This document shows, piece after piece, positions 20,119 through 36,780 of a DNA stretch of 64,000 bases. The stretch lies in the sequence record MN850647.1; one strand, written 5' to 3'. The stretch's first letter is position 1. Each line of letters opens with the position of its first letter. A program made the position numbers and the translations under genes. This DNA is from Escherichia phage tootiki. The notes below the pieces were generated by a model. That model was given only the letters and a program-made list of their open reading frames with translations. It did no database searches and had not been told where the DNA came from.

Positions 20119-21534
20119 TTACCAGATGTAACGGTCAATCATTACTGCTTTGAGCATTACGCTGATTGGGTCAAACTTCTCACCACCAAGCAGAGCTTTT
20201 AAAGTGGCTGGAGAGAACCCTGATACCATTGCTACACCATTATCCTTAACAGACACTTCGCAAGTACCATTACGGTTTGCTAAGTACCAGAATACTAGTT
20301 GTGGCATTTCGTATCCAGCTTTTTTGTACTTACTCTGAATTGCTTCAAAGTTTGTACGACCATTTGCACCATCAACCTGATTGAACTCCATATCAGAGAA
20401 GATGATAAGCTTACTTGGCATATCTTTCTGAGTCAAGTTGTTTCTATTACCTACCTCAAGAATACGGTCAAAAGCTGCTTGTAAGTTAGTTGAACCATAT
20501 TCAACATGACGCATTACCTGACGATGACGGTTTCGTAAATCACCACTCAGTTCAATGAAATGAGGGTTTGTTGAATAGACCATTAACTCATCTTTAAAGC
20601 AACCTGTATTGCGTTCTGCTATATACAAGGCAAGTGATACACCAATATCAAGGGCAGTGATTGAGCCAAGATTCACCCAAGACATTGAGCTTGAAACATC
20701 AGTCATACACAGGATGTTTTCACCTTCTGCCATCCAGTTTGGTAGTGCTTTCCACTGCTCATTAGCAACATCTGCATTACCATACTTAATAGATTTAATC
20801 ACATCGTATGGGTAAACAGCACCAGCGTTAATCTTAGCCTCACCCTTTGATAGTGATTCGATGTAAGCTTTGTAACGTTCCCCATCTTTACGGTTAAAGA
20901 GCTTTTGGTAACGTGCAGCAGCAAGTGAGGGAATCTTGCTGTAGTCAATCTTACCAAACTCATTAGCAGAGATTTTTTGCTCAACCGTATCAGACAGTGC
21001 AGATAACAGTGTGCGATACTCCTTCTCGCTTAAGTTTGCAAATTTACAGAAACGTTTTACAAACTGTTTGTGGCGTGGTTTTACTCGTGGCAACCACTTA
21101 GCTGCTAAACCTGCTGTTGCAGGGTCTAGTAATACTGCTTCTAAATGTTTGAAGGCATCTGTCTCAAAACGAGTATCTACAAAGATTTTGAAGTCATCAA
21201 AACGACCCAGTTCTGCAATCTTATCCATAATGCGAAGAACCTGTGTAGGTTCTAAAACCTTATCTTCAATCGCTTGAAGTAAAACAGTTCGGAAAGCTTT
21301 ACGCTCACCCATACCTTCTCGTACATCTCGCATATGCAGTAAAATACGAACTGCAACATCAACATCCTCACGCAAAGCTTTGTAGAACAGGTCTGGTAAG
21401 ATTTCTACATTGCTACGGCTTGAGCCAGCGGATTTGTAGAAGTCTACCAGAGCAGACATTGATGAAGTATGGTTTACAGCACCATTTTCAGTTCGACCTG
21501 CATGAAGGTGCGCATGTTTAAATAACTCGCTCAT
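20119..21534 (-). CDS. vWA/MIDAS-motif protein with helical N-terminal domain (DUF2828-like; Ro60-like architecture)
   Basis: 471 aa; MIDAS-like DVSSSM around residue 275; N-terminal TENGA...S..LVDFY...GSSRS pattern. Confidence 0.55.
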   Translation of the reverse strand: MSELFKHAHLHAGRTENGAVNHTSSMSALVDFYKSAGSSRSNVEILPDLFYKALREDVDVAVRILLHMRDVREGMGERKAFRTVLLQAIEDKVLEPTQVLRIMDKIAELGRFDDFKIFVDTRFETDAFKHLEAVLLDPATAGLAAKWLPRVKPRHKQFVKRFCKFANLSEKEYRTLLSALSDTVEQKISANEFGKIDYSKIPSLAAARYQKLFNRKDGERYKAYIESLSKGEAKINAGAVYPYDVIKSIKYGNADVANEQWKALPNWMAEGENILCMTDVSSSMSWVNLGSITALDIGVSLALYIAERNTGCFKDELMVYSTNPHFIELSGDLRNRHRQVMRHVEYGSTNLQAAFDRILEVGNRNNLTQKDMPSKLIIFSDMEFNQVDGANGRTNFEAIQSKYKKAGYEMPQLVFWYLANRNGTCEVSVKDNGVAMVSGFSPATLKALLGGEKFDPISVMLKAVMIDRYIW

Positions 21535-21615
21535 ATTTTACTCTCTTCTCTCATTTGTTGTTTGATGTGACAGACTTTAGAGCAACTTTGTAGAGTCTGT
21601 CAACATCTTTTAAGA

Positions 21616-21987
21616 TTATTTTTTGAGAGTCGCTACAGCAGAGAACGTTGGTTTGTTATCTGTCTGTTGTTGACCACCATTATCAGGAGTCTTCTTAGTG
21701 TCTGCTGCAAGTGCTTTCATCTCACCTGCTGAGTGAGTAAAGATAGTTTTACCGACCTCAATCATACTCTTGATGGTTACATCATCTGTGTTTAACCCGA
21801 ACTCTGCAAGCTTAGCAGCGTCCCTTGTAACAATCGCCTCAAACAACTTTGCAGCAAACTCAGCAGAATTATCAATGGTCAGTTGAGCTTTTACGAGTGA
21901 GCTTTTGTTACGAGAGCCTTTTGGTCTTCCAGATGGGTTTCCAGACTGGCCTTTTTTAAACTGGCCTTTGTTTGTTCTGTTTTTCAT
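21616..21987 (-). CDS. small protein with GNPSGRPKG motif (DUF5681-like; small terminase candidate)
   Basis: 123 aa; N-terminal FKKGQSGNPSGRPKG, a motif I associate with proteins encoded just upstream of large terminases. Confidence 0.45.
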   Translation of the reverse strand: MKNRTNKGQFKKGQSGNPSGRPKGSRNKSSLVKAQLTIDNSAEFAAKLFEAIVTRDAAKLAEFGLNTDDVTIKSMIEVGKTIFTHSAGEMKALAADTKKTPDNGGQQQTDNKPTFSAVATLKK

Positions 21988-22163
21988 TGGTATGCCTCTT
22001 ATAAGACCTCTTAAAAGGCTTTTAAGATAAAAGATAGATATCCAGAAAGATATCTGTTTAAATAGCCTTTTTAGAGGAACCTTTTAAGTTATCTTCTAAG
22101 TATTTATAAGCCTACACCTTGTCAAGTACTTTGTCAACAACTTTTTTAACTTGCAATAGTTCT

Positions 22164-22192
22164 TGACTTGTTGTATGGATTACTGTACCATC
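22164..22192 (+). promoter_or_regulatory. candidate sigma70-like promoter for plus-strand island
   Basis: TTGACT, 17 nt spacer, TACCAT about 45 nt upstream of first plus-strand ORF. Confidence 0.3.
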
Positions 22193-22236
22193 TTACTTAA
22201 AGCTGTAGGTCTGCCTTGTTCTACAAAGGAGACTTA

Positions 22237-22398
22237 ATGAGAAAATCAAACAACCCGAAGAAAGGTAAAAATACCAATCACTGTAAGGAATCAAAAAGGG
22301 TAGAGTTACTCTACTATTCATCCTCTGAAATTGGTCTGTACCTGTTCTTTCAAAATTACAGAAGACAAGAGGATTATCTATGTGTAGTTCCCAATTAG
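22237..22398 (+). CDS. hypothetical small basic protein
   Basis: start moved to ATG preceded by AAGGAG. Confidence 0.45.
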   Translation: MRKSNNPKKGKNTNHCKESKRVELLYYSSSEIGLYLFFQNYRRQEDYLCVVPN

Positions 22399-22613
22399 AA
22401 ATCGCAGATATTATAGATTTATATCAAACTGCAAAGAGTCATGGCTATATAACCTCAATTGGAAAGAATAGTCACTATGATGCTTTGACTGGAATGTATT
22501 TCAGGGCAATGGCTCAATCTAGTGAACAACACTTAGTAGTTTCTTCCAGTGAGTTTACTTCGTTTCTCTATTGCAGCAAAATTATAAATCGCAGGAGAAC
22601 TGAAAAATGTTAA
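22380..22613 (+). CDS. hypothetical protein
   Basis: 77 aa ORF, overlapping junctions with neighbours. Confidence 0.4.
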   Translation: MCSSQLEIADIIDLYQTAKSHGYITSIGKNSHYDALTGMYFRAMAQSSEQHLVVSSSEFTSFLYCSKIINRRRTEKC

Positions 22614-23197
22614 CAGTAAGTTTTAATTACAATAGTGATGGCTCTGTATCAATTAATTCACCATATGCAAATGACCTGCTTAAAGAGCTAGTCAATCAGT
22701 GTGATAGAGGTCTTCACTATGTTCAAAATTCTTTTAAACAGAAGACTATTGCTAATAACTTGATGCGTGTAACAGTGACGGCATCGAATCTAAATTATGA
22801 CTTTGATAGTGAAAGTCCGTACTCATTAGTTGCGCTTGGAGAGAGCAGCCAATTCAAACTTGTTTGCCACGACTCAGAAACATTCCTTAAGGTATTTTCC
22901 AACCTTATCCATAATAATAAGTACAGCTACGTTGATGGTAGTGTAAACTTCTATCCAGCAAACTATACATGTTTGTTGGTTGATAATATGAGAAAAAGTA
23001 AGCAAGAGCCTACAGAAATTTCATTTGATGTGAACTCTAGTCCAGACGCAGAAACAAGTAAGAACTTTGATATGAGTTACGCATTGTCACTTAGTAAGAA
23101 ATCCGAGTTCATTGATTATGTCAATGGATTTGGTTTTAAGTTTGATGAGAGTATGAATCTTAAAAAACTTAAGAACCTACTTAAGACCAAAGCTTAA
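22607..23197 (+). CDS. hypothetical protein
   Basis: 196 aa ORF with GGAG upstream. Confidence 0.5.
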   Translation: MLTVSFNYNSDGSVSINSPYANDLLKELVNQCDRGLHYVQNSFKQKTIANNLMRVTVTASNLNYDFDSESPYSLVALGESSQFKLVCHDSETFLKVFSNLIHNNKYSYVDGSVNFYPANYTCLLVDNMRKSKQEPTEISFDVNSSPDAETSKNFDMSYALSLSKKSEFIDYVNGFGFKFDESMNLKKLKNLLKTKA

Positions 23198-23244
23198 GTG
23201 TGAATAGGGGCTGATGCCCCTTTAACTATTTATAAGGATATTTA

Positions 23245-23616
23245 ATGAAAGCTAAGAGTGCAAAAGACTTTTATTGCTTCCTACAATCCTATATCAATTC
23301 CGTGCAAAATGGTGAAAGGTACAACCTTAATGATGTTATCCCAACACCTTTGACATGGAGACTCAGCAAATGGCCTGAAGAAGATATTACACCAACAATC
23401 GAACAGCGTACCTACAAACCTGAAATCAATATTCCAGATTCTGAGAACCTATTATATCCAATGTTCCATATTGTTGGACTTGGAAGATTCCTTATGGATA
23501 TCCAGTATGTAATTGGTAAAGGCTATAAGGTTAAAGGTATTGTTGTTGGTGATGTATCTCCGCATCACAAAGGTTATTTTAGACTAAACGCACATTTAGA
23601 GGCTAAAAAGAAATGA
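23245..23616 (+). CDS. hypothetical protein, paralog of N-terminal domain of next gene
   Basis: 123 aa; clear similarity to residues 1-110 of 23613-24497 (both contain FxMDxQYxI). Confidence 0.55.
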   Translation: MKAKSAKDFYCFLQSYINSVQNGERYNLNDVIPTPLTWRLSKWPEEDITPTIEQRTYKPEINIPDSENLLYPMFHIVGLGRFLMDIQYVIGKGYKVKGIVVGDVSPHHKGYFRLNAHLEAKKK

Positions 23617-24497
23617 TTAAAGCAAAGACTTACCCAGACTTCAAAGAGTTTGTGAAGGGTTTCATTGCAAATGTAAAGGCTGGTAAGAGGTATGATTTTA
23701 GAACATATCAAGAGGCTATTTTACCACTTACCTATAGTTCATATTGGCCTGAAGCTGATATTGCAGAAGTTGAGAAGTTTGACTACAAACCAGACTACAA
23801 AGTTCCATTTAGTGATGAATTGCTTTACAGTGTTGGTGCACAGATGAGAACTGCTGATTTCTTCATGGATTTGCAGTATGCAATCATCAATGGTAAAGAT
23901 GTTGACACAATTTACTGTGAATGGTTGGCAAGAGTTAAGCCGTTCTCAATGTTGAATGCTAAGTTGAAGGATGCTATTAAGCCACCAGCAATTACTCAGC
24001 AACCGACAGGTCAAACAGTCAATGAGGGTGGCACACTTACTCTAAGCATTCTAGCAACTAACGCCACTGGATATCAGTGGAAGAAGGATGGTGAGGACAT
24101 CCCTAGTGCCAATTCTGCAACTTACACAAAACAGTCAGTAGCACCTTCTGATGCTGGTTCATACACTTGTGTTGTATCTGGAGAGGGTGGAACAAGTGTT
24201 ACCTCAGATGCAGCAACAGTGACTGTGAATGCACTTCCTGTCATCACTCAACAGCCAACCAATCAAGAAATCAATGAAGGTGAGACCTTAACGTTGAATG
24301 TTGTGGCAACAGGTGCAACAGGTTATCAGTGGAAGAAAGATGAGGAAGACATCCTCGATGCAACTACTGCAACCTACACCAAAGAAGGAGCAACCGCTGC
24401 TGATTCAGGAAGCTACACCTGTGTAGTTACTGGTGCAGGTGGCTCTGTAACATCTAATGCGGCAACAGTTACAGTTAACCCAGCAGGGGAGGCATAA
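23613..24497 (+). CDS. protein with two C-terminal Ig-like domains
   Basis: 294 aa; tandem 80 aa repeats each with YQWKKD...GSYTCVV; ATGA overlap with upstream gene. Confidence 0.6.
   Translation: MIKAKTYPDFKEFVKGFIANVKAGKRYDFRTYQEAILPLTYSSYWPEADIAEVEKFDYKPDYKVPFSDELLYSVGAQMRTADFFMDLQYAIINGKDVDTIYCEWLARVKPFSMLNAKLKDAIKPPAITQQPTGQTVNEGGTLTLSILATNATGYQWKKDGEDIPSANSATYTKQSVAPSDAGSYTCVVSGEGGTSVTSDAATVTVNALPVITQQPTNQEINEGETLTLNVVATGATGYQWKKDEEDILDATTATYTKEGATAADSGSYTCVVTGAGGSVTSNAATVTVNPAGEA
23980..24480 (+). repeat. tandem coding repeat (two Ig-like domain units)
   Basis: two adjacent units of about 245 bp encoding near-identical motif order. Confidence 0.6.
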
Positions 24498-24961
24498 TGC
24501 AACTCTCAAGAAAAGGTTTAGAAGCTATTAAGTTCTTTGAAGGTCTGAAGTTAGAGGCTTACAAAGACTCCGCCGGAATCCCAACAATTGGGTATGGTAC
24601 AATCCGTATTGACGGAAAACCTGTTAAGATGGGTATGAAAATTACTGCTGAACAAGCTGAACAGTATCTTCTCGCAGATGTTGAAAAGTTTGTTGCAGCA
24701 GTGAACAAAGCTATCAAGGTTCCAACCTCTCAGAATGAGTTCGATGCACTTGTAAGTGAAACATACAACATTGGTATCACAGCTATGCAGGATTCTACAT
24801 TTATTAAGCGCCACAATGCTGGTAATAAGGTAGGTTGTGCAGAAGCTATGCAGTGGTGGAACAAGATTACAGTCAAAGGTGAGAAGGTCACTTCAAACGG
24901 TCTGAAAAACAGACGTAGAATGGAAGCTGACATTTATCTTGACAGTGTATATCCAAAGTAA
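24497..24961 (+). CDS. endolysin, GH24 lysozyme family
   Basis: 154 aa; LEAYKDSAGIPTIGYG signature with catalytic E/D/T pattern of T4-type lysozymes. Confidence 0.8.
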   Translation: MQLSRKGLEAIKFFEGLKLEAYKDSAGIPTIGYGTIRIDGKPVKMGMKITAEQAEQYLLADVEKFVAAVNKAIKVPTSQNEFDALVSETYNIGITAMQDSTFIKRHNAGNKVGCAEAMQWWNKITVKGEKVTSNGLKNRRRMEADIYLDSVYPK

Positions 24962-24970
24962 TATCTTCAT

Positions 24971-24999
24971 AGGCTCCTTCGGGAGCCTTTTTTATTTTC
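24971..24999 (+). terminator. intrinsic terminator after endolysin
   Basis: AGGCTCC-TTCG-GGAGCCT hairpin followed by TTTTTTATTTT. Confidence 0.7.
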
Positions 25000-25012
25000 T
25001 AAGGAGAAAACT

Positions 25013-25411
25013 ATGAAGCTTTGGGCTAGTGACTTTGGGACTTTTAAGTACACTCGTAATGGTTCGCTTGTACGCATTGTCGGAAACAATGTGGTTTCAA
25101 GAGGCGACAAGGTGTATACACGGTTTACTGTAGAGCTTGTTGAACTGTCACCTATTGAGTCTGTGAACAATGGCCTGTTCAAGTTTGAGACTTACAATGT
25201 CAATGAGCATGGACAATTCAATCCTCTTGGCGAAAGTGGACTTGATATTATTTCAGAACACCCGTTGACAAAAGAGCAACTTGCAGGTTATTATAAAACT
25301 GTTCTTGAAAGGCAGTTAGCAACACATGAACAAGAAGCTAACTACCATTTACAACATTGCGAAATTTTAAGAGCAAAAATCGAACAAGCAGAGAGAGGTT
25401 TTTATGAATAA
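25013..25411 (+). CDS. hypothetical protein
   Basis: 132 aa, AAGGAG upstream. Confidence 0.5.
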   Translation: MKLWASDFGTFKYTRNGSLVRIVGNNVVSRGDKVYTRFTVELVELSPIESVNNGLFKFETYNVNEHGQFNPLGESGLDIISEHPLTKEQLAGYYKTVLERQLATHEQEANYHLQHCEILRAKIEQAERGFYE

Positions 25412-25799
25412 TAACAGTCATATCCATGTTAAGGTTGATGTCAGCCGTTACAGCGAAAATGAGGAACTAGGCCTGCAAGATGCTCTTCTATTTGAGAAGA
25501 ATGGTAATCTCCATTTGCATTTTGAAGGTACAAACACATATCTCCACAGATGTCGAGATGATGCAGATGGTTGCCCTGTTTTTGCTTGGTATAATTTAGA
25601 GTTTCCACTTTACGCAATCCACTACCCAGATGGTGGAGAAGACTGGACAACTCAATCAATCTTTGATGAGCTTAACGGTATTCCGGTTGAGCAGGAAGAA
25701 CAAGAGCCTGTTGAACTTACCTTCACCTTCGTCAAAGAAGAAACGGTTGGTGATTTGTCAGTAACTGAAGCTATTCAGGTAACACAGGTCATTCGCTAA
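25404..25799 (+). CDS. hypothetical protein
   Basis: 131 aa, overlapping start. Confidence 0.45.
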   Translation: MNNNSHIHVKVDVSRYSENEELGLQDALLFEKNGNLHLHFEGTNTYLHRCRDDADGCPVFAWYNLEFPLYAIHYPDGGEDWTTQSIFDELNGIPVEQEEQEPVELTFTFVKEETVGDLSVTEAIQVTQVIR

Positions 25800-26092
25800 T
25801 GAGTAAAGTACAGGTTATTTTCCCTATTTGTGACTTCTCACTAGAGCGTGAACTTGACCTGTACGAAGAAATTACTGACGAAATCATCTGGTCTGTTGTA
25901 GAAGAGGCTATCAAGAAACTGTATGGTGGCCTCTTAAACCCATCAAGTAAAAAGCTCAATACCAAACAAGTAGCTGATACGTACACGTCATATGATGCCT
26001 ACAACAAACCTTTTGAGAACACCTGCTTTGACCTTATGGTAGGTAATAATAAAGTCAACTACTTCTTCGTCAGAGAGTTTAACGATGAGTAA
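25799..26092 (+). CDS. hypothetical protein
   Basis: 97 aa, ATGA overlap. Confidence 0.45.
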   Translation: MSKVQVIFPICDFSLERELDLYEEITDEIIWSVVEEAIKKLYGGLLNPSSKKLNTKQVADTYTSYDAYNKPFENTCFDLMVGNNKVNYFFVREFNDE

Positions 26093-26429
26093 GCTCCATG
26101 TCACAGTATACAAAAACTTCTCAGATATCAAAGAGTCTTTAACAAATAAGCTTGACTTACAACGTAAAAGACTCTTTTTAATGTACGACATAGACAACTA
26201 CAACCATCCTAAAGAGTTTAACTACAAAGATGGTACAAAGGTTGTCGAATTTGAAGATTCTGTGACGGTGTATGTCAAATATGACTTACCAGCAAAGTAC
26301 ATAGGAATGTTAGAGTATTACATATTCAAACATACAGGTATGCGTGGTGAAGCTGTCAAGATATCTTCTATAGAAGTTTTTGAGAAACCTAACACACAAC
26401 TTAAAAAGTATTTAATGAGGAAACTGTAA
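26085..26429 (+). CDS. hypothetical protein
   Basis: 114 aa. Confidence 0.45.
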   Translation: MSKLHVTVYKNFSDIKESLTNKLDLQRKRLFLMYDIDNYNHPKEFNYKDGTKVVEFEDSVTVYVKYDLPAKYIGMLEYYIFKHTGMRGEAVKISSIEVFEKPNTQLKKYLMRKL

Positions 26430-27010
26430 TGTCCGAAGAGCAACAGGATATCATTCCACAAGTAACACTTGTACAACACTTTGGAAATATTGAAGGGTGT
26501 GTAGCACTTTTTCAACCAAGCATCAACTCTCCTGCAAAAGTTTGCAAGCTGACTATGAATGTTAACAACATCAGTGTTTGCCTTGTTGATGAAGTTCAGT
26601 ACTTCAAGTTTAATGACAGAGAGGTTGATGCTGCACTATTGAAGTACCGAGCAAGCCTCGAAAAAGACATCGACCACAAAGAACTTGTAACACTGTTTGG
26701 TGACCTTCACAAGCTTCTTGAAAAGGTTATGAAGCGTACATATTACATGAACAATGGCTCAATCATCACCACTTTGATTTCACCATGTATTTCAGAGCCG
26801 ATTTTAACTGATGACGGTGGGTACTACGTGGTAGCATCAGCAGACCCTGATTGGTGGATGAAGAACACAGCACTTAAGACGGTTATCGAGGCTATCCGTG
26901 AACATATCCCTTCATTCAGCCCGTGGAAAGGTAAAAGTGATGATTTTATCGCACTATTGAGTGAAGAGAGTAACAAGCGCAGTGCATTACTGCCTAAAAA
27001 ATACTCTTGA
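26429..27010 (+). CDS. hypothetical protein
   Basis: 193 aa. Confidence 0.5.
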   Translation: MSEEQQDIIPQVTLVQHFGNIEGCVALFQPSINSPAKVCKLTMNVNNISVCLVDEVQYFKFNDREVDAALLKYRASLEKDIDHKELVTLFGDLHKLLEKVMKRTYYMNNGSIITTLISPCISEPILTDDGGYYVVASADPDWWMKNTALKTVIEAIREHIPSFSPWKGKSDDFIALLSEESNKRSALLPKKYS

Positions 27011-27093
27011 CCGAGTATACAAAACTGATTATGATGGGAGCTATCGAGAGGTAGTTCCCTTTTTAGTTTCTAGATAAGAGACATGGTAAAAGA

Positions 27094-27312
27094 ATGAAAA
27101 AACTAACTACAGTTGAAGATTACTACAAACTTTCCCTGTTAGAACAGTATCGCAGGAGACAGAATAGCAGAAAATGTTACGGTAAGCACGCTGAAGGTGA
27201 TTTTTACCATTGCTATGATGCAGATTTAAAAGGCGTAACACCTAGAGGGAAAGTCCTGCAAAGACTTGTTGACCTTGAGTGGAACAAACGATTGAGAGGG
27301 GTTGGAAAATGA
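27094..27312 (+). CDS. hypothetical small basic protein
   Basis: 72 aa. Confidence 0.4.
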   Translation: MKKLTTVEDYYKLSLLEQYRRRQNSRKCYGKHAEGDFYHCYDADLKGVTPRGKVLQRLVDLEWNKRLRGVGK

Positions 27313-27812
27313 TTTACGAAGAAAGATACAAGATAGATTTTCAGGATACTTGCCATCATACTTCTTTAAGAGTGACGAAACCAAATGGAGAGGTTGGTAT
27401 CATAGCACATTTTGGTGGTGATTATTGGTATGGTACAGGTTGCTTTGAAGGCTACACTCAAGAATACCTGAAAGCTTTCTACAGAGACTTTGCAAATGAC
27501 TACAACAGAGTTGTTGACGAAAAGAATAAGTGTATTAAGCATGAACACCATGCCAGAGGTTGCCTAAGTATTGTTATGGTACTGGCGTTCTTCTTAGCAA
27601 TGCTACTGGCAGTATCAGCAATTAGCTGCATAGCTCAAGATTTGACCATTACACAGATTACTACAAAGATACATGATATCTGGTACTTGTATGCTGTTCC
27701 TTTAGCTGGTATTATCATCTCACTAATAAGGTTCAGAGTTCATAAGAAACGACTTAAGGATTCTGAGGTTAAACTTGAAGAGGTAAGTAAAGAATGCAAC
27801 CTACAATTATAG
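27309..27812 (+). CDS. hypothetical membrane protein (two C-terminal TM segments)
   Basis: start moved to ATG after GAGGGG; hydrophobic stretches LSIVMVLAFFLAMLLAV and YLYAVPLAGIIISLI. Confidence 0.45.
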   Translation: MIYEERYKIDFQDTCHHTSLRVTKPNGEVGIIAHFGGDYWYGTGCFEGYTQEYLKAFYRDFANDYNRVVDEKNKCIKHEHHARGCLSIVMVLAFFLAMLLAVSAISCIAQDLTITQITTKIHDIWYLYAVPLAGIIISLIRFRVHKKRLKDSEVKLEEVSKECNLQL

Positions 27813-27888
27813 CTGTATGTGTTCGTTTTGCAATCGCTGAAATGATTAACAAGGCAATCTTAAAAGATGCCTATGGAGAGACTAAGTA

Positions 27889-28113
27889 ATGATTAAGACA
27901 CCTGTACCAATTTTTGGATTTCCTTCTATAGAAGAGTTTAAAGTTTATCTTGACAAAAACTTCTACAACGAGCAGCCTGTTACTTTGCTGAAGAGTGACT
28001 TATCAGAGCTTCTTGATATGGTTATTAAGGCAACTTCTGAGAAGGAACCTGAGCAGAAAGCTGAGAAGAAGACTAGTAAGAAATCCGATAAGAAGACTGA
28101 AAAGTCTGAGTAA
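27889..28113 (+). CDS. hypothetical protein with Lys/Glu-rich tail
   Basis: 74 aa. Confidence 0.4.
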   Translation: MIKTPVPIFGFPSIEEFKVYLDKNFYNEQPVTLLKSDLSELLDMVIKATSEKEPEQKAEKKTSKKSDKKTEKSE

Positions 28114-28165
28114 TAGCTTAGGGGTTACTTGATAGCCCCTTTGTAGAAACTTAGAAGGTAGCGAA

Positions 28166-28630
28166 ATGAAAATTAAAGAAGTCGTTCAAAAAGCAATGCT
28201 TGACAACTCAACTAAAGATGAAATGTACAAAGAGATTTGTGATAAGTTGAATTGTTCAAGACATGCTGCTAAGGCTCTTGTACATTGTTTTATCTGGGAA
28301 TGCTCAGAGGCTTATATGCAATATGTAGCTTTTGAAAGTTCTCACTTGCTAGGTGATGTAGAAGTTGGTGAGAAGCTAAAAGAACCTGAGATGAAAACAG
28401 TTCCTAAAGTTGGTAATACATACCCTCTTAAAGATTTCAAGACTGGAAAGATTGTTGCAAAAGGTGTAGTAGAATCTGTCTATCATGATGGTAAATACTT
28501 ACTTAAAATATTTGAGTATGACAGCCACTATACGCACTTATGTGGGATTACATTCTTAGTAACAGAAGAAGACCTTATTAAGAACAACAGCAACAAGTTT
28601 GCAGTACCAGCCTACCAAGTTTTACGATAA
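28166..28630 (+). CDS. hypothetical protein
   Basis: 154 aa. Confidence 0.45.
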   Translation: MKIKEVVQKAMLDNSTKDEMYKEICDKLNCSRHAAKALVHCFIWECSEAYMQYVAFESSHLLGDVEVGEKLKEPEMKTVPKVGNTYPLKDFKTGKIVAKGVVESVYHDGKYLLKIFEYDSHYTHLCGITFLVTEEDLIKNNSNKFAVPAYQVLR

Positions 28631-28643
28631 TGGTGTGATAGCT

Positions 28644-29192
28644 ATGGAAAAAGATAACTTAAAAGAAGTTGAAGGTAACTACCTAGTACTTGACTGGAAC
28701 GATGTTCGAGAAGCACTCTCCGAAGAAAATCTTGACTGGTTCGAACAAATTATCTTTGCAGTACGGCATAACAGAGAAGTTGAAAATGGTAAAGAGCCAC
28801 TTGAAGGAATCTTTGTAGAGAAGTCTTATCCGTTCTATGAAGATACTTTGCAGAAAGTTAAAATGTACTTTAAACAGAAGAACCGTAAAGTGGTCACTAT
28901 GGTATCTTTTGGTGGACAGAGTATGTCTGTGATGGAAGATATCAACCCTAAGAGACCGAGCAAAGGTGTCTGTATAAAAATCACAGGGCATGAAGAGTAT
29001 ATCTCAGTGGACGATTTTAGTGTGTTCTGTAATGGTTCTGCTGTCTTTAATGGGTTTCACTATGATATCCGAGTGTACCCAATCAAGGGAGATGATATCA
29101 TGATGCAGATATTCGATAACAACAATGGATTTACTCATTTTTATCAGACAACCAAGTCATCATTAAAAACAGTTCTGGAAACACTGATTTAA
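28644..29192 (+). CDS. hypothetical protein
   Basis: start moved to first ATG downstream of previous stop. Confidence 0.45.
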   Translation: MEKDNLKEVEGNYLVLDWNDVREALSEENLDWFEQIIFAVRHNREVENGKEPLEGIFVEKSYPFYEDTLQKVKMYFKQKNRKVVTMVSFGGQSMSVMEDINPKRPSKGVCIKITGHEEYISVDDFSVFCNGSAVFNGFHYDIRVYPIKGDDIMMQIFDNNNGFTHFYQTTKSSLKTVLETLI

Positions 29193-29200
29193 AATATCTT

Positions 29201-29232
29201 AAGAGCCTCCTTAATTGGGGGCTTTTTAATTT
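29201..29232 (+). terminator. intrinsic terminator at end of plus-strand island
   Basis: AGCCTCC-N7-GGGGGCT hairpin followed by TTTTTAATTTTT. Confidence 0.55.
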
Positions 29233-30348
29233 TTATAAAATTTTATCGGTTGTCCCAACCTCTGGGTCACCATCATATGTGAATAAAATATCTACCCTTC
29301 TTAACAACCTTCTTAATCTTACTCTCTATATAGTTATATAGTACTATATAGTATCTTAGTAACTATCTAGTGGTCTTAATAGCCCTCTGTATAGCCCTTC
29401 TAAATAGCCTTCTAAACACTCTTCTAACAAGCCCTCTTAACCACCTATACAATCACCTTAACCATCCCTCTACACCCTCTTAGAAGCTCCTATACACCTC
29501 TTAATCTCTAGGTTAGCTATGGCACTCTCTATAGGTGTTCACTAGGTAATACTAAGCCTCTATATAGACTGTTTTAACAAACTTAACAGGAATATCTTTA
29601 CAGACCTTACCTCACAAGGTCTAACACGGTACTAACAAGGTATCTTGTAAGCCTGTTTCTACCTGTATTTTTAAAAGACTGTATAGGTAATTATTCAGAA
29701 TTTTAAAATTTTTATAAAATAGGACTATCAAGTCATTTTTTAGGGTCTTTGAAGGAACTGAAAAATATCTGTCTAGGATGTATATCTGCTTGGTAGCCCT
29801 TAACAGCTCCCTTACAAGTACTTTGCAAAATTTTAAAATATCCTTAACAATCTCTTAACAGTTCTCACATCTTCTTAACAACTCTTCAAAGGTCTTAACA
29901 GATTCTTAACAGAACTAACAAGGCTGTAACAGTTTCTTAACAGTTGATACATAATCTTTACAGAGGCTTAACAGATGACTAACAAGAGCTAACAAGTTAA
30001 TTTTAAAGAGTTATTTTGTTAAGATTATTAACAAGTTTCTAACAAGTCTTTAATCTTTTTAACAAGCTATTAACATGGTCACTATCTCTTTCTTATCGTT
30101 CCCTTTCCTTTCTTAGTGATTCTTTAAACATACCTCTTAAAAGCTCTCTATAGCTCTTTATAAGCTCTTTTAAGTCTCTTCCTAGTAGTTACACCCCAAC
30201 TGTACAGATAGCTCTCTATAGGGCTTTACAGGAGCTTTTAAGGCTATGTCAAAGACTCTTACAAGGCTTTTACGTGGTCTTAACAGAGATTTAACAAGGG
30301 GCTAACAAGTTGCTAACAAGTGTCTTAAAAGCATAACTATGTAGGGAT

Positions 30349-30380
30349 TGTTAAGAAATTGTTAAGAAAATGTTAAGGGG
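30349..30380. repeat. three inverted-orientation iterons (TTGTTAAG)
   Basis: TTGTTAAGAAATTGTTAAGAAAATGTTAAGGG; reverse complement of the upstream TAACA iteron. Confidence 0.6.
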
Positions 30381-30393
30381 GCTAGTATTTACG

Positions 30394-30443
30394 TAACTTT
30401 TAAGCTACTTCAAAATAACTTTTAAGCTACTTCAAAATAACTT
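30394..30443. repeat. 23 bp perfect tandem direct repeat (2 copies)
   Basis: AACTTTTAAGCTACTTCAAAATA repeated back to back. Confidence 0.7.
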
Positions 30444-30767
30444 TATAGCCCCCTTCTTAGATATTCACAAGATAACTAATGAGATGATAAAGCTTACACC
30501 CTTATAAGATTCTTTTAAGGCTCTGGGAAGCTTTATAAAGGGCTTTTAATGGTGAGGTAATGCAATCCCTTAAGTTAGGTTAATAAGGTCGTTATAGGGC
30601 TTTATAGAGCGTTTAAATGGTTGCCCTTCCCTTTCGGGTTATGGGCTTATATTTAAGTTGATTTGATAAGGGGCTATAGAGTAAGCTATAGAGTTATTGT
30701 TTTTTAAGGTCTGATAAGATTCTGGAAAGGAAAGGGAAAGGGTTGTATAAGGGATTTGATAAGACGT

Positions 30768-30790
30768 AAAAAAGCCCCATATAAAGGGGC
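30768..30790 (-). terminator. intrinsic terminator after minus-strand small-gene block
   Basis: minus strand GCCCC-TTTATAT-GGGGC followed by TTTTTT. Confidence 0.55.
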
Positions 30791-30829
30791 TGTAAAGGTA
30801 TCTGGGGCTATTTAGCCCCGTTGCGGCGT

Positions 30830-31078
30830 TTAGTTAGTGCCTTCTTTGTCGTAGTACAAGGAGACAATTTTTTCACCCCAGTAGTGGTATGTATAACCCT
30901 CTTTGAGAACTTCCTCTTTTGTTTCTTTCCAGAATTCATCAGAGGGGTTGTAGTCACTGATGGTCTGGCTGATAAGGCCTTTCACCATTTCAAAGGCGTT
31001 ATCAGTACCTACAAGGTCAAATTTAACGTCCAGAGAGTAGAAGCCAAATTCGTTAACAGTTGCGCGGATAGTAGCCAT
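30830..31078 (-). CDS. hypothetical small protein
   Basis: 82 aa; preceded by type A cassette. Confidence 0.5.
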   Translation of the reverse strand: MATIRATVNEFGFYSLDVKFDLVGTDNAFEMVKGLISQTISDYNPSDEFWKETKEEVLKEGYTYHYWGEKIVSLYYDKEGTN

Positions 31079-31154
31079 TTTAGAATCTCCAGTTTAGGAA
31101 GTTGATTAAGGGTTTTGTTTAGCGGGGAAGGTCATTCCCTCCCCGTTGATTGAC

Positions 31155-31183
31155 AATTTACAGACTTTTGATTGTTTCGTCAA
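31155..31183 (-). promoter_or_regulatory. sigma70-like promoter within type A cassette
   Basis: minus strand TTGACG, 17 nt, TAAATT, followed by 5' hairpin and GGAGA RBS. Confidence 0.5.
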
Positions 31184-31688
31184 TATCTTTTTCAATATCT
31201 TTTAAAGTTTTTTCTAAGTTCTTGATATTGAAAGATAAACCTTCTCCCAGTGTCTTAGAGTAACCGCTAGGACGTGAGTCATATAGTTCAATTTCTTCTA
31301 CTTCGAAGAGGCTAACCAACTCACCGCTTACACTGTAAGCCATTGAAACAGTATTTACAGGGGCTTTATAAAACTTGTTTAAGGACTTGATAGAACGTTC
31401 ATAAGCCATTTTATAGCTATTTAAAAGGTTTTTAACGTGGCTGTGAACGTTTTTACACTCATCTAAATAAAGACCTAAAAACATCGGGAGAAGTTCCGCG
31501 ACAGCTTGCATAAAGTGAGAGACTACAACGGTTGCAACATTACGACGATGAACGTAATAAGCCCCGTTTTCTGATTTGGTAATGGTTGCAAAGTGTACCC
31601 CATTACAACGAAATTCATAGGTATCTTTAACAGGCTTAGACATTACATTATTTGAACGAATATAGTTGATAGCTTTGAACTTGTTCAT
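31158..31688 (-). CDS. hypothetical protein
   Basis: start moved to ATG (MNKFKAINY) preceded by conserved GGAGATTCTAAA leader. Confidence 0.5.
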   Translation of the reverse strand: MNKFKAINYIRSNNVMSKPVKDTYEFRCNGVHFATITKSENGAYYVHRRNVATVVVSHFMQAVAELLPMFLGLYLDECKNVHSHVKNLLNSYKMAYERSIKSLNKFYKAPVNTVSMAYSVSGELVSLFEVEEIELYDSRPSGYSKTLGEGLSFNIKNLEKTLKDIEKDIDETIKSL

Positions 31689-36334: not shown

Positions 36335-36584
36335 TTTTAGATTCTCCAGTTTAGGAAGTGGGCTTGATTGCCCGTCTGATGCAGATATTAGATAACTATA
36401 CTCAAAGAGTCAATAGGAATTTTAAAAATATTTTTTGCAAAAATTGTAATGAAACGGGTGCGCGCGACTACCACAAAACAGAACTACAATCAAGAATTAT
36501 TTTTCAATCCGCTACAAATTTTTCTGTTGACTTTTATTTCCAGATGTGGTAGCCTTGTGAGAAATGGCGACATCCCCACCTGTA

Positions 36585-36780
36585 CCCACCTACCTGCACA
36601 ATTCTAAAATGATTTTTCTTGCCCGACCTGAGCGGGGTCTGCACGTTTTGAAAATGAAAAAGCTCTTTGGAGATTACCTGCACAGTTTAAAAATGAATTT
36701 TCTCTTTGGAGTTCAAAATTCTCTCTACAGATTTCTCTACAGAACTCTACCTGCACAAATCTGAAATGAAAAAGCCCTCC
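36585..36780. repeat. direct repeat array (ACCTGCACA box with AAAATGA(A/T)TTTTC, 3-4 copies)
   Basis: copies at 36591, 36675, 36748 with degenerate copy at 36638; repeated TCTTTGGAG. Confidence 0.6.

Follow-up and report, generated by a model that had tools for sequence, protein, structure and literature searches.

The window analysed is a 64,000-nucleotide stretch of Escherichia phage tootiki (sequence record MN850647.1), in which sixteen tightly packed plus-strand open reading frames (ORFs) occupy positions 22237-29192 and all remaining long ORFs lie on the minus strand. Sixteen genes at this position, as the sequence-only reading had it, are confirmed by the ORF list and by GC skew, which is positive across 22-29 kb and negative across the minus-strand coding regions (outside the block it turns positive only at 30-32 kb, at the non-coding gap downstream). 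That this is the only plus-strand coding block in the window is borne out for convincing ORFs: those elsewhere on this strand are antisense to tRNAs or of low complexity, except for two tiny ORFs at 36449-36758 that are annotated in the Bas63 record. A second opposite-strand block of the genome, corresponding to Felix O1 genes 96-80, lies just outside the window. The flanks are a tRNA array with Ro60/vWA-like and DUF5681 genes upstream, on the opposite strand, and a repeat-rich, non-coding gap of 1.5 kb downstream. Nine of the 15 gene junctions overlap, two of them by ATGA (-4), three by TAATG (-1) and the other four by 7, 8, 8 and 19 bases; the proposed ATGA-type coupling is thus real at two junctions and is one overlap type among several. 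The features are as follows.

22119-22191, plus strand: predicted head promoter region, two TTGTCAA repeats (22119-22125, 22131-22137), then TTGACT-17-TACCAT (22163-22191)
22237-22398, plus strand: o40 (Felix O1 ORF40, Bas63 g128), 53 aa, basic; phrog_8138, unknown-function category
22380-22613, plus strand: o39 (ORF39, g127), 77 aa; phrog_5064
22607-23197, plus strand: o38 (ORF38, g126), 196 aa
23206-23221, plus strand: hairpin after o38, Felix O1 t38; -11.9 kcal/mol, z-score -1.7, weak U-tract
23245-23616, plus strand: o37 (ORF37, g125), 123 aa
23613-24497, plus strand: Hex-Dec (ORF36, g124, Sf14 gp20), Ig-repeat protein
24497-24961, plus strand: endolysin (ORF35, g123), assigned as a soluble GH24 T4-type lysozyme; phrog_7 endolysin
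24971-24988, plus strand: intrinsic terminator after the endolysin, Felix O1 t35; -12.9 kcal/mol, z-score -4.2
25013-25411, 25404-25799, 25799-26092, 26085-26429 and 26429-27010, plus strand: five overlapping genes, o34, o33, o32, o31 and o30 (g122-g118)
27036-27059, plus strand: intrinsic terminator after o30, Felix O1 t29; -16.3 kcal/mol, z-score -4.0
27094-27312, plus strand: o28 (g117), 72 aa, basic; phrog_4459; ATGA overlap with o27
27309-27812, plus strand: o27 (g116), 167-aa membrane protein
27889-28113, plus strand: o26 (g114), 74 aa, acidic/lysine-rich tail; phrog_4457
28120-28140, plus strand: hairpin after o26; -13.5 kcal/mol, z-score -3.0, weak U-tract
28166-28630, plus strand: o25 (g113); phrog_4713
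28644-29192, plus strand: o24 (g112); phrog_4330
29201-29226, plus strand: block-terminal intrinsic terminator, after o24; -15.2 kcal/mol

Gene content, orthology, the identity of the two named proteins, synteny, hairpins and promoter conservation were computed here, and timing, virion presence and knockout phenotypes were taken from published work; promoter use, read-through and all roles proposed for the 14 unnamed proteins are what we infer from these. The window belongs to a Felixounavirus, with about 94-97 % DNA identity to Felix O1, garuso and LinBro (94.7-97.1 % at 100 % query coverage). All 16 block proteins have collinear matches in Felix O1 at 89-100 % identity, and the block is fully syntenic with those of Felix O1, garuso and Bas63. 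In Felix O1 a transcription unit of "genes 40 to 24" has already been described, together with terminators t38, t35 and t29 (Whichard et al. 2010, Viruses 2:710). Gene content varies between relatives at the o30-o28 intergenic site (27011-27093), where Felix O1 carries an additional 181-aa ORF29 and Moogle a 241-aa homologue, and where the window, garuso and Bas63 have neither. Synteny across four genera showed that the 5' part (o40, o39, o38, Hex-Dec, endolysin and the terminator) is kept across the subfamily Ounavirinae, whereas the 3' part occurs in Felixounavirus/Mooglevirus-type phages alone, with other genes in its place in Kolesnikvirus and in a Hafnia phage. Identity to the Moogle proteins is 75-91 % for the 5' gene products and 48-70 % for the 3' ones.

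The block had been credited with a promoter of its own and with strong hairpin terminators as its bounds. A conserved promoter region is present at its head, but TTGACT-17-TACCAT matches the sigma-70 consensus at only 9 of 12 positions in a consensus scan, and promoter-like matches across the whole region are not commoner than in shuffled sequence. From the hexamers through the approximately 75 nt to the ATG, Citrobacter phage Moogle shows three differences, all of them past the hexamers in the leader, a near-invariance that contrasts with the 48-91 % identity of the block proteins. The segment 22163-22191 is predicted to act as a weak sigma-70-type promoter. Two further promoter-like elements occur next to terminators, TTGACA-17-TATCTT (24939-24967) just before the t35-type terminator and TTGACC-17-TATGAT (27007-27035) abutting the terminator after o30, and sigma-70 matches of 10-11/12 cluster in the minus-strand region beyond the non-coding gap. 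As to the terminators, the description fits the 3' end, but at the 5' end the block is bounded by a divergent promoter region and not by a terminator. Five plus-strand hairpins (-11.9 to -16.3 kcal/mol), of which three have clear U-tracts, follow o38, the endolysin, o30, o26 and o24, so that the block is segmented internally as well as closed at its 3' end. The terminator after the endolysin is kept in Moogle and also, with compensatory changes, in Kolesnikvirus. Across the 1.5-kb gap the block-terminal terminator is faced by a minus-strand one (30791-30773, -11.6 kcal/mol), and the Moogle record annotates an equivalent facing pair.

Among the 5' genes, the Ig-repeat protein is identified by homology as Hex-Dec, a Hoc-like capsid decoration protein whose presence on the capsid has been shown for its orthologues. 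It matches the solved structures of its Bas63 and Sf14 counterparts (PDB entries 9NCF_S, E 6e-248, and 9C2D_S, E 7e-165) from residue 1, the N-terminal capsid-binding domain included, has a C-terminal tandem in which Pfam Ig_3, Ig_2 and I-set each match two stretches above their curated cut-offs, and contains the Sf14 capsid-contact residues R79 and R107. Felix O1 gp36 was detected in the virion by mass spectrometry (44 % coverage); cryo-EM density at hexamer centres has been assigned to the orthologues in Bas63 and Sf14, and the Sf14 protein was also found in virions by mass spectrometry. The product of o37 is 38 % identical to Hex-Dec residues 2-100 (E 9e-17) and matches 9NCF_S and 9C2D_S over residues 3-117 (E about 1e-11). 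This suggests that it represents the Hex-Dec capsid-binding domain as a separate, paralogous protein, an assignment that is new here; RT-PCR of its Felix O1 counterpart gave a maximum at 60 min (Whichard et al. 2010). In the o38 product an acidic disordered linker joins a duplicated beta-beta-alpha-beta domain at the N terminus to a three-helix motif at the C terminus; this protein is probably a further paralogue of the capsid-binding domain. Its gene lies directly upstream of Hex-Dec across the Ounavirinae, the order in the window being o38, then o37 and Hex-Dec. The o40 product shares 81-100 % identity with its counterparts in Felix O1, Bas63 and Moogle and has a weak 37 % match in Kolesnikvirus; at the o39 position Kolesnikvirus and the Hafnia phage also carry a small gene, at 17-24 % identity.

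The endolysin matches PF00959 over residues 13-143 (E 9e-41, 139.6 bits against a gathering cut-off of 22.3), its translation contains the catalytic triad E15-x8-D24-x5-T30, and a sequence scan found no transmembrane or hydrophobic segment and no SAR or signal sequence. On this evidence it is a soluble GH24 T4-type lysozyme, sharing with phage lysozymes such as T4 gpe and P22 gp19 the full-length family match, the E-8-D-5-T motif, solubility and the lack of a signal-anchor. In the literature on Felix O1-like phages no gene has been securely assigned as the holin. The o27 gene shares its transcription unit with the endolysin. In its product a soluble N-terminal domain of about 80 aa, rich in Cys and His, is followed by two transmembrane segments (hydrophobic residues 81-115 and 124-142) and a charged C-terminal tail (C-terminal sequence RVHKKRLKDSEVKLEEVSKECNLQL). 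Its C-terminal layout is shared by a 247-aa protein of the Hafnia phage block, and Kolesnikvirus has a 54-aa protein with two transmembrane segments encoded by the second gene past the lysin. We therefore propose, as a new suggestion from its layout, that o27 may be holin-like, a candidate holin or lysis-timing protein. Taken further, the whole block could be a dispersed lysis cassette, with o27 acting on the endolysin as holin or antiholin and small neighbours perhaps as lysis regulators. The o30 homologue adjoining the spanin gene in Kolesnikvirus would fit such a role, and so would a 77-aa gene annotated as a putative holin in one record of the equivalent blocks, a neighbour of the gene with two transmembrane segments and not that gene itself. 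This we consider very unlikely. S17-1 is the only strain in which Bas63 g116 is more essential, and on three of four hosts the gene is dispensable, an unusual finding if it encoded the sole holin. The o27 product also exceeds typical class II holins in size, and no holin family matches its sequence. The spanins are encoded outside the block, elsewhere in the genome, unlike in a holin-endolysin-spanin cassette, and a lysis cassette leaves Hex-Dec and most of the other genes unexplained.

The sequence-only reading recognised no motif beyond the endolysin and the Ig-repeat protein, and the searches agree: the other 14 of the 16 proteins have no curated Pfam, NCBIfam or PADLOC family and fall in PHROGs without assigned function, and 11 block proteins lack a functional lead of any kind. 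Nor are all of the genes conserved core genes with assigned functions, the outcome named beforehand as counting against an accessory module. All of o34-o30 belong to PHROGs of the unknown-function category, with no Pfam match at the curated cut-off and nothing in NCBIfam or PADLOC. Among these five only o30 has homologues outside the genus, in the Hafnia phage block and by the Kolesnikvirus spanin gene, and a fold search with its predicted model (pLDDT 70) gave no informative match. The o24 gene is confined to 253 Felixounavirus/Mooglevirus-type records. A weak similarity of the o25 product to IHF-alpha was lost on profile search. Bas63 g114, the o26 orthologue, is conditionally essential in S17-1, and an XseB-like helical fold was noted for it by the authors of the screen.

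Such genes could be read, for the block or for its genus-specific 3' half (o34-o24), as an accessory island for host takeover or anti-defence, inhibiting host processes or immunity. The 3' genes are small, lineage-restricted, faster-evolving than the 5' genes and variable in content at one site, their products match no known family, and in Bas63 the need for g114 and g116 depends on the host. With 14 proteins lacking an assigned function, some 3' genes may still have such a role. A genome-wide knockout screen of Bas63 was done in E. coli with 12 defence systems only. None of its validated counter-defence genes (g77, g79, g80, g84, g85 and g130) belongs to the block, where the one gene it flagged was the endolysin g123, as the trigger of retron Ec67. 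The adjoining minus-strand gene at 20119-21534 is the orthologue of g130, which was validated as countering the ppl defence system, and this neighbourhood speaks in favour of an island. Searches of Pfam, NCBIfam, PADLOC and the PHROG function categories showed no homology to known anti-defence or host-shutoff proteins. By RT-PCR in Felix O1, 13 of the 14 block genes tested peak at 25 or 60 min post-infection, the 3' genes at 25 min or later except o31, which peaks at 5 min (Whichard et al. 2010), in a semi-quantitative and noisy assay whose table also has the major capsid gene 58 maximal at 5 min; no RNA-seq for the genus was found in the literature. The early expression and strong host-type promoters of an early island are not seen here, given the 9/12 head promoter and these RT-PCR times; strong sigma-70 promoters and small genes expressed at 5 min lie instead beyond the non-coding gap. 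With a virion protein and a late endolysin encoded in it as well, an anti-defence or host-takeover module is unlikely, and that part of the earlier interpretation is not upheld. The block is nonetheless a separately transcribed unit, and the description as accessory suits its 3' two-thirds in the evolutionary sense, this part being lineage-restricted and replaced elsewhere.

The block is most probably, at a probability of roughly 0.78, the Felixounavirus counterpart of the Felix O1 transcription unit "genes 40-24", an ordinary and already known unit and no new island. In the picture we propose, it would be read from the conserved, weak sigma-70-type promoter, divergent from the DUF5681/Ro60-like/tRNA unit, and transcription would run to the 1.5-kb gap, there meeting an oppositely oriented early-gene unit. 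With the hairpins as dividing points it would consist of five sub-operons, each translationally coupled (o40-o39-o38; o37, Hex-Dec and endolysin; o34-o30; o28-o27 with o26; o25-o24), and expression of distal genes would then need read-through or internal promoters. The 5' part, conserved across the subfamily, would serve late functions. A Hex-Dec monomer would plug the centre of pentamer-proximal capsid hexamers with its N-terminal domain, its Ig-like domains facing outward as in T4 Hoc, with o37 and probably o38 as paralogues of the capsid-binding domain, and the soluble lysozyme would depend on a holin for access to the cell wall. The 3' part would provide genus-specific small cytoplasmic proteins and one membrane protein with two transmembrane segments, dispensable or conditionally needed.

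Hex-Dec resembles T4 Hoc as a monomeric decoration protein at hexamer centres that displays a string of Ig-like domains (two in the window and Felix O1, three in Sf14, four in Bas63) and is supposed to have an adherence or aggregation role. It differs in its capsid-binding domain, which lies at the N terminus, is larger and pseudo-two-fold symmetric and has a distinct topology, in its restriction to pentamer-proximal hexamers, and in sequence, similarity being minimal outside the Ig domains. An equivalent block is present in Hafnia phage SarahDanielle and in Kolesnikvirus (Erwinia phage FIfi106, Salmonella phage ST-3). There too it lies, in this orientation, between the tRNA array/DUF5681 gene and a non-coding gap, which measures about 1.5 kb or more, and its core order is likewise small genes, o38 homologue, Hex-Dec, endolysin and terminator, but it has no separate o37 and its post-lysin genes are unrelated, except for o30 in the Hafnia phage; the Kolesnikvirus block has only about 3 kb and nine genes. 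The closest likeness is to Felix O1 unit 40-24 and its orthologues in Bas63 (g128-g112), garuso and LinBro, which differ from the window in the presence of ORF29 between o30 and o28 in Felix O1 and otherwise agree with it gene for gene and in gene order (82-100 % protein identity), in their flanks and in terminators t38, t35 and t29.

The 7.4-kb region around the plus-strand block matches 253 phage records, and Felixounavirus genomes, among them LinBro, garuso and Felix O1, are 94–97% identical to it over its full length; the window is therefore assigned to the subfamily Ounavirinae, as DNA of a Felix O1-like myophage. Its G+C content is ~39% and its minus strand carries 24 tRNA genes. The open reading frames (ORFs) of the block correspond one-to-one with ORFs 40-24 of Felix O1, after which they are named here (o40 to o24, with no o29), and with g128-g112 of phage Bas63; this mapping comes from annotation tables and local tblastn. 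The one additional gene of Felix O1 is ORF29, located between o30 and o28. The Felix O1 genome was described as four transcription regions, one of them "genes 40-24", with terminators t38, t35 and t29 listed at the positions found in the window (Whichard et al. 2010, PMC3185647). The locus is thus already known, having been mapped in 2010, and since two cryo-EM structures of its Ig-repeat protein and a genome-wide knockout map of a close relative also exist, its discovery value is small. It is best described as a Felix O1-type mid/late unit containing a head-decoration protein, an endolysin and variable small accessory genes. The whole block also lies, at 93.7% identity, inside GU169904.1 (Staphylococcus phage SA1, 147 kb); a Felix O1-like segment under a Staphylococcus phage name suggests a chimeric or contaminated assembly. 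The features discussed below are as follows.

20119-21534, minus: gene for a 471-aa Ro60/vWA-like protein beside the tRNA array, two genes outside the block
22119-22137: two TTGTCAA repeats, 12 bases apart
22237-29192, plus: the block, o40 to o24
22607-23197, plus: o38
23245-23616, plus: o37, 123 aa
23613-24497, plus: Ig-repeat protein (Felix O1 ORF36)
24497-24961, plus: endolysin (Felix O1 ORF35)
24939-24988 and 27007-27059: promoter-like matches at terminator hairpins
25404-25799, plus: o33
27011-27093: intergenic stretch of variable gene content
29227-30772: non-coding gap
36449-36758, plus: two doubtful ORFs

A six-frame ORF map bore out the sixteen consecutive plus-strand ORFs. Their description as the only plus-strand coding block of the window applies with one reservation: nearly all other long ORFs are on the minus strand and the remaining plus-strand ORFs are low-complexity or antisense to tRNAs, but the pair at 36449-36758 (51-52 aa), annotated in Bas63 as g097 and g096, is 98-100% conserved. 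The composition of this pair looks non-genic; if real, the two ORFs would form a second, tiny plus-strand unit. GC skew is negative where the minus strand codes and positive at 22-29 kb, and the only further positive skew, at 30-32 kb, falls at the non-coding gap. Coupling by ATGA-type overlaps was proposed for the block; overlaps occur at 9 of the 15 junctions, but only two are ATGA; three others are TAATG, and the remaining four measure 7, 8, 8 and 19 bases. On the plus strand, hairpins of -11.9 to -16.3 kcal/mol lie after five genes (o38, the endolysin, o30, o26 and o24), and three of the five hairpins have good U-tracts; an Rfam scan of 21500-31300 gave no structured RNAs. The hairpin after o24 does bound the block, as the sequence-only reading had it, but its 5' edge is formed by a divergent promoter region and the other hairpins are internal, so the block is split into sub-operons as well as closed.

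The proposal that the block has its own promoter can be kept in qualified form. The best match at its head is TTGACT-17-TACCAT, only 9/12 of the sigma-70 consensus; matches to the promoter consensus across the region are not commoner than in shuffled sequences, and most strong sigma-70 matches sit in the minus-strand region beyond the non-coding gap. However, the head promoter and the ~75 nt up to the o40 start codon hardly differ from those of Citrobacter phage Moogle (three changes, none in the hexamers and all in the leader after them), whereas the block proteins of the two phages are only 48-91% identical; conservation of this kind is good evidence that promoter and leader are functional. 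The TTGTCAA repeats at 22119-22137 are directly upstream of this promoter; both keep their GTCAA core unchanged in Moogle, whose second copy is ATGTCAA, and a phage regulator may use them as its operator. At 24939-24988 and 27007-27059 a 10/12 sigma-70-like match ends right at the foot of a terminator hairpin, such that a transcript from either would start within the hairpin, and these may be terminator-plus-restart arrangements. A candidate late-promoter motif shared by the region upstream of o37 and the head region, CTATTTATAAG, was dropped: it occurs six times for an expected 2.1, and these sites do not lie upstream of late genes.

The whole block is present in Moogle (Mooglevirus), in which the 5' genes (o40 to the endolysin) are 75-91% identical to those of the window and the 3' genes (o34 to o24) 48-70%. 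Kolesnikvirus (FIfi106, ST-3) and Hafnia phage SarahDanielle have a block at the same place and in the same orientation, and share only o38, an o40-like gene, a positional equivalent of o39, the Ig-repeat protein gene, and the endolysin with its following terminator. Downstream of the lysin their genes are different apart from o30, which the Hafnia phage has within the block and Kolesnikvirus next to its spanin gene. Searches with o38, o30 and o24 found these families in Ounavirinae-type phage sequences only; for o24 the matches were limited to Felixounavirus/Mooglevirus-type records. Since the 5' genes are kept and those after the lysin replaced, the block consists of a late core that is conserved and, after it, a variable tail specific to the genus; across related phages the tail is thus accessory in an evolutionary sense, whereas the late core is kept across the subfamily.

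The intergenic stretch at 27011-27093 holds only a terminator in the window, garuso and Bas63; its gene content varies, with the 181-aa ORF29 in Felix O1 and a 241-aa homologue in Moogle. Beyond the block, the 1.5-kb non-coding gap at 29227-30772 lies between convergent terminators and is dense in short repeats. Of the 27 copies of CTTAACAR in the window, 14 are in 29300-30366, among them runs with a 31-base spacing and inverted copies. The Hafnia phage has a non-coding gap of at least ~1 kb at the same position, and in Bas63, Moogle and Kolesnikvirus it measures ~1.5-1.7 kb; candidate roles are an origin, a packaging site or a regulatory site.

The layout of the block had been taken to indicate host takeover or anti-defence, a view that finds no support for the block as a whole, its expression in Felix O1 being mostly at 25-60 min and the counter-defence genes validated in Bas63 lying elsewhere. 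By RT-PCR in Felix O1, ORFs 24, 25, 26, 28, 29, 32, 33, 34, 35 and 38 peaked at 25 min, ORFs 30, 36 and 37 at 60 min; ORF31 alone peaked at 5 min, and the small genes seen at 5 min (13, 16, 20-22) belong to the minus-strand region beyond the gap (PMC3185647). These data are noisy, the major capsid gene also appearing at 5 min, and are therefore taken as supportive, not decisive; literature searches returned no RNA-seq or transcriptome for Felixounavirus and no paper that refers to the block genes of Bas63 by their locus tags. PhageMaP knockouts in Bas63 validated g77, g79, g80, g84, g85 and g130 as counter-defence genes (PMC11482910), all of which are outside the block in the Bas63 annotation. 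The protein encoded at 20119-21534, near the block, is 97% identical to g130, whose action against the ppl defence system was validated (PMC11482910). Within the block, the endolysin gene g123 acted as a trigger of retron Ec67, and g114 (o26), g116 (o27) and g124 (the Ig-repeat protein) were more important in strain S17-1 only (PMC11482910). A host-takeover or anti-defence set confined to the 3' half is a minority possibility, and the mid/late unit is the preferred description.

Apart from the endolysin and the Ig-repeat protein, the sequence-only reading had recognised no motif in the proteins of the block, and searches of Pfam, PHROGs, NCBIfam and PADLOC agreed, yielding only PHROGs of unknown function and sub-threshold noise (DUF5092 and SNAD1 for o30, HTH_23 for o25). 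Single-sequence matches of o25 to IHF-alpha (E 0.04-0.5) disappeared with a family profile, and an IHF/HU-like DNA-binding role was rejected. A model of o30 (pLDDT 70.5) gave no informative fold match. The endolysin is a full-length PF00959 lysozyme with an E-8-D-5-T motif and no membrane segment. The Ig-repeat protein matches PDB 9NCF chain S of Bas63 (E 6e-248) and 9C2D chain S, Sf14 gp20 (E 7e-165), and on these matches is Hex-Dec, a Hoc-like decoration protein. Cryo-EM of Bas63 and Sf14 places its N-terminal domain of ~118 residues at the centre of pentamer-proximal hexamers with the Ig domains pointing outward; in Felix O1, gp36 was found in virions at 44% coverage, and the "tail protein" gene 36 was remarked to be far from the morphogenesis genes (PMC3185647). 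Many GenBank records label it "tail protein" or "HK97 major tail subunit", which is wrong for a capsid decoration protein, and the label "D-alanyl-D-alanine carboxypeptidase" given to o33 in several records was supported by no family search. The practical worth of the locus is in correcting these propagated labels.

Immediately upstream, o37 is 38% identical to the capsid-binding domain of Hex-Dec (E 9e-17), and its residues 3-117 match both 9NCF_S and 9C2D_S; judged by this similarity, it is clearly a stand-alone paralogue of that domain. The capsid-contact arginines R79 and R107 of Sf14 gp20 are Gly and His in o37, which is absent from the available virion protein lists of Felix O1 and Sf14. 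The single best match of o38 is the product of the gene two positions downstream; although unlikely to be by chance, the match has no support from Foldseek or hhalign and is only a lead. In an AF2 model of o38 (14-sequence alignment, pLDDT 77), a disordered acidic linker joins a duplicated beta-beta-alpha-beta domain to three C-terminal helices. When the text of the two cryo-EM papers, on Bas63 and on Sf14, was searched, no mention of o37 or o38 came up.

A tentative reading, given roughly one chance in three, is that the three consecutive 5' genes are an expansion of one pseudo-two-fold capsid-binding fold and, separately, that o27 is the missing holin of Felix O1-like phages. In such an expansion, o37 would be the bare domain, to which o38 would add an acidic linker and a C-terminal motif rich in helices, and Hex-Dec its Ig repeats; o37 and o38 could function in assembly of the head, compete for hexamer sites not filled by Hex-Dec, or control Hex-Dec occupancy. 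Both are modest, testable side leads in a genus whose phages are used for Salmonella diagnostics and therapy. The literature on Felix O1-like phages has no holin firmly identified, and g116, the Bas63 counterpart of o27, was dispensable on three of four hosts (PMC11482910). In o27, two transmembrane segments precede a charged tail, and the equivalent blocks of other genera hold membrane proteins of similar layout. The o27 protein resembles a class II holin, but with an N-terminal extension.
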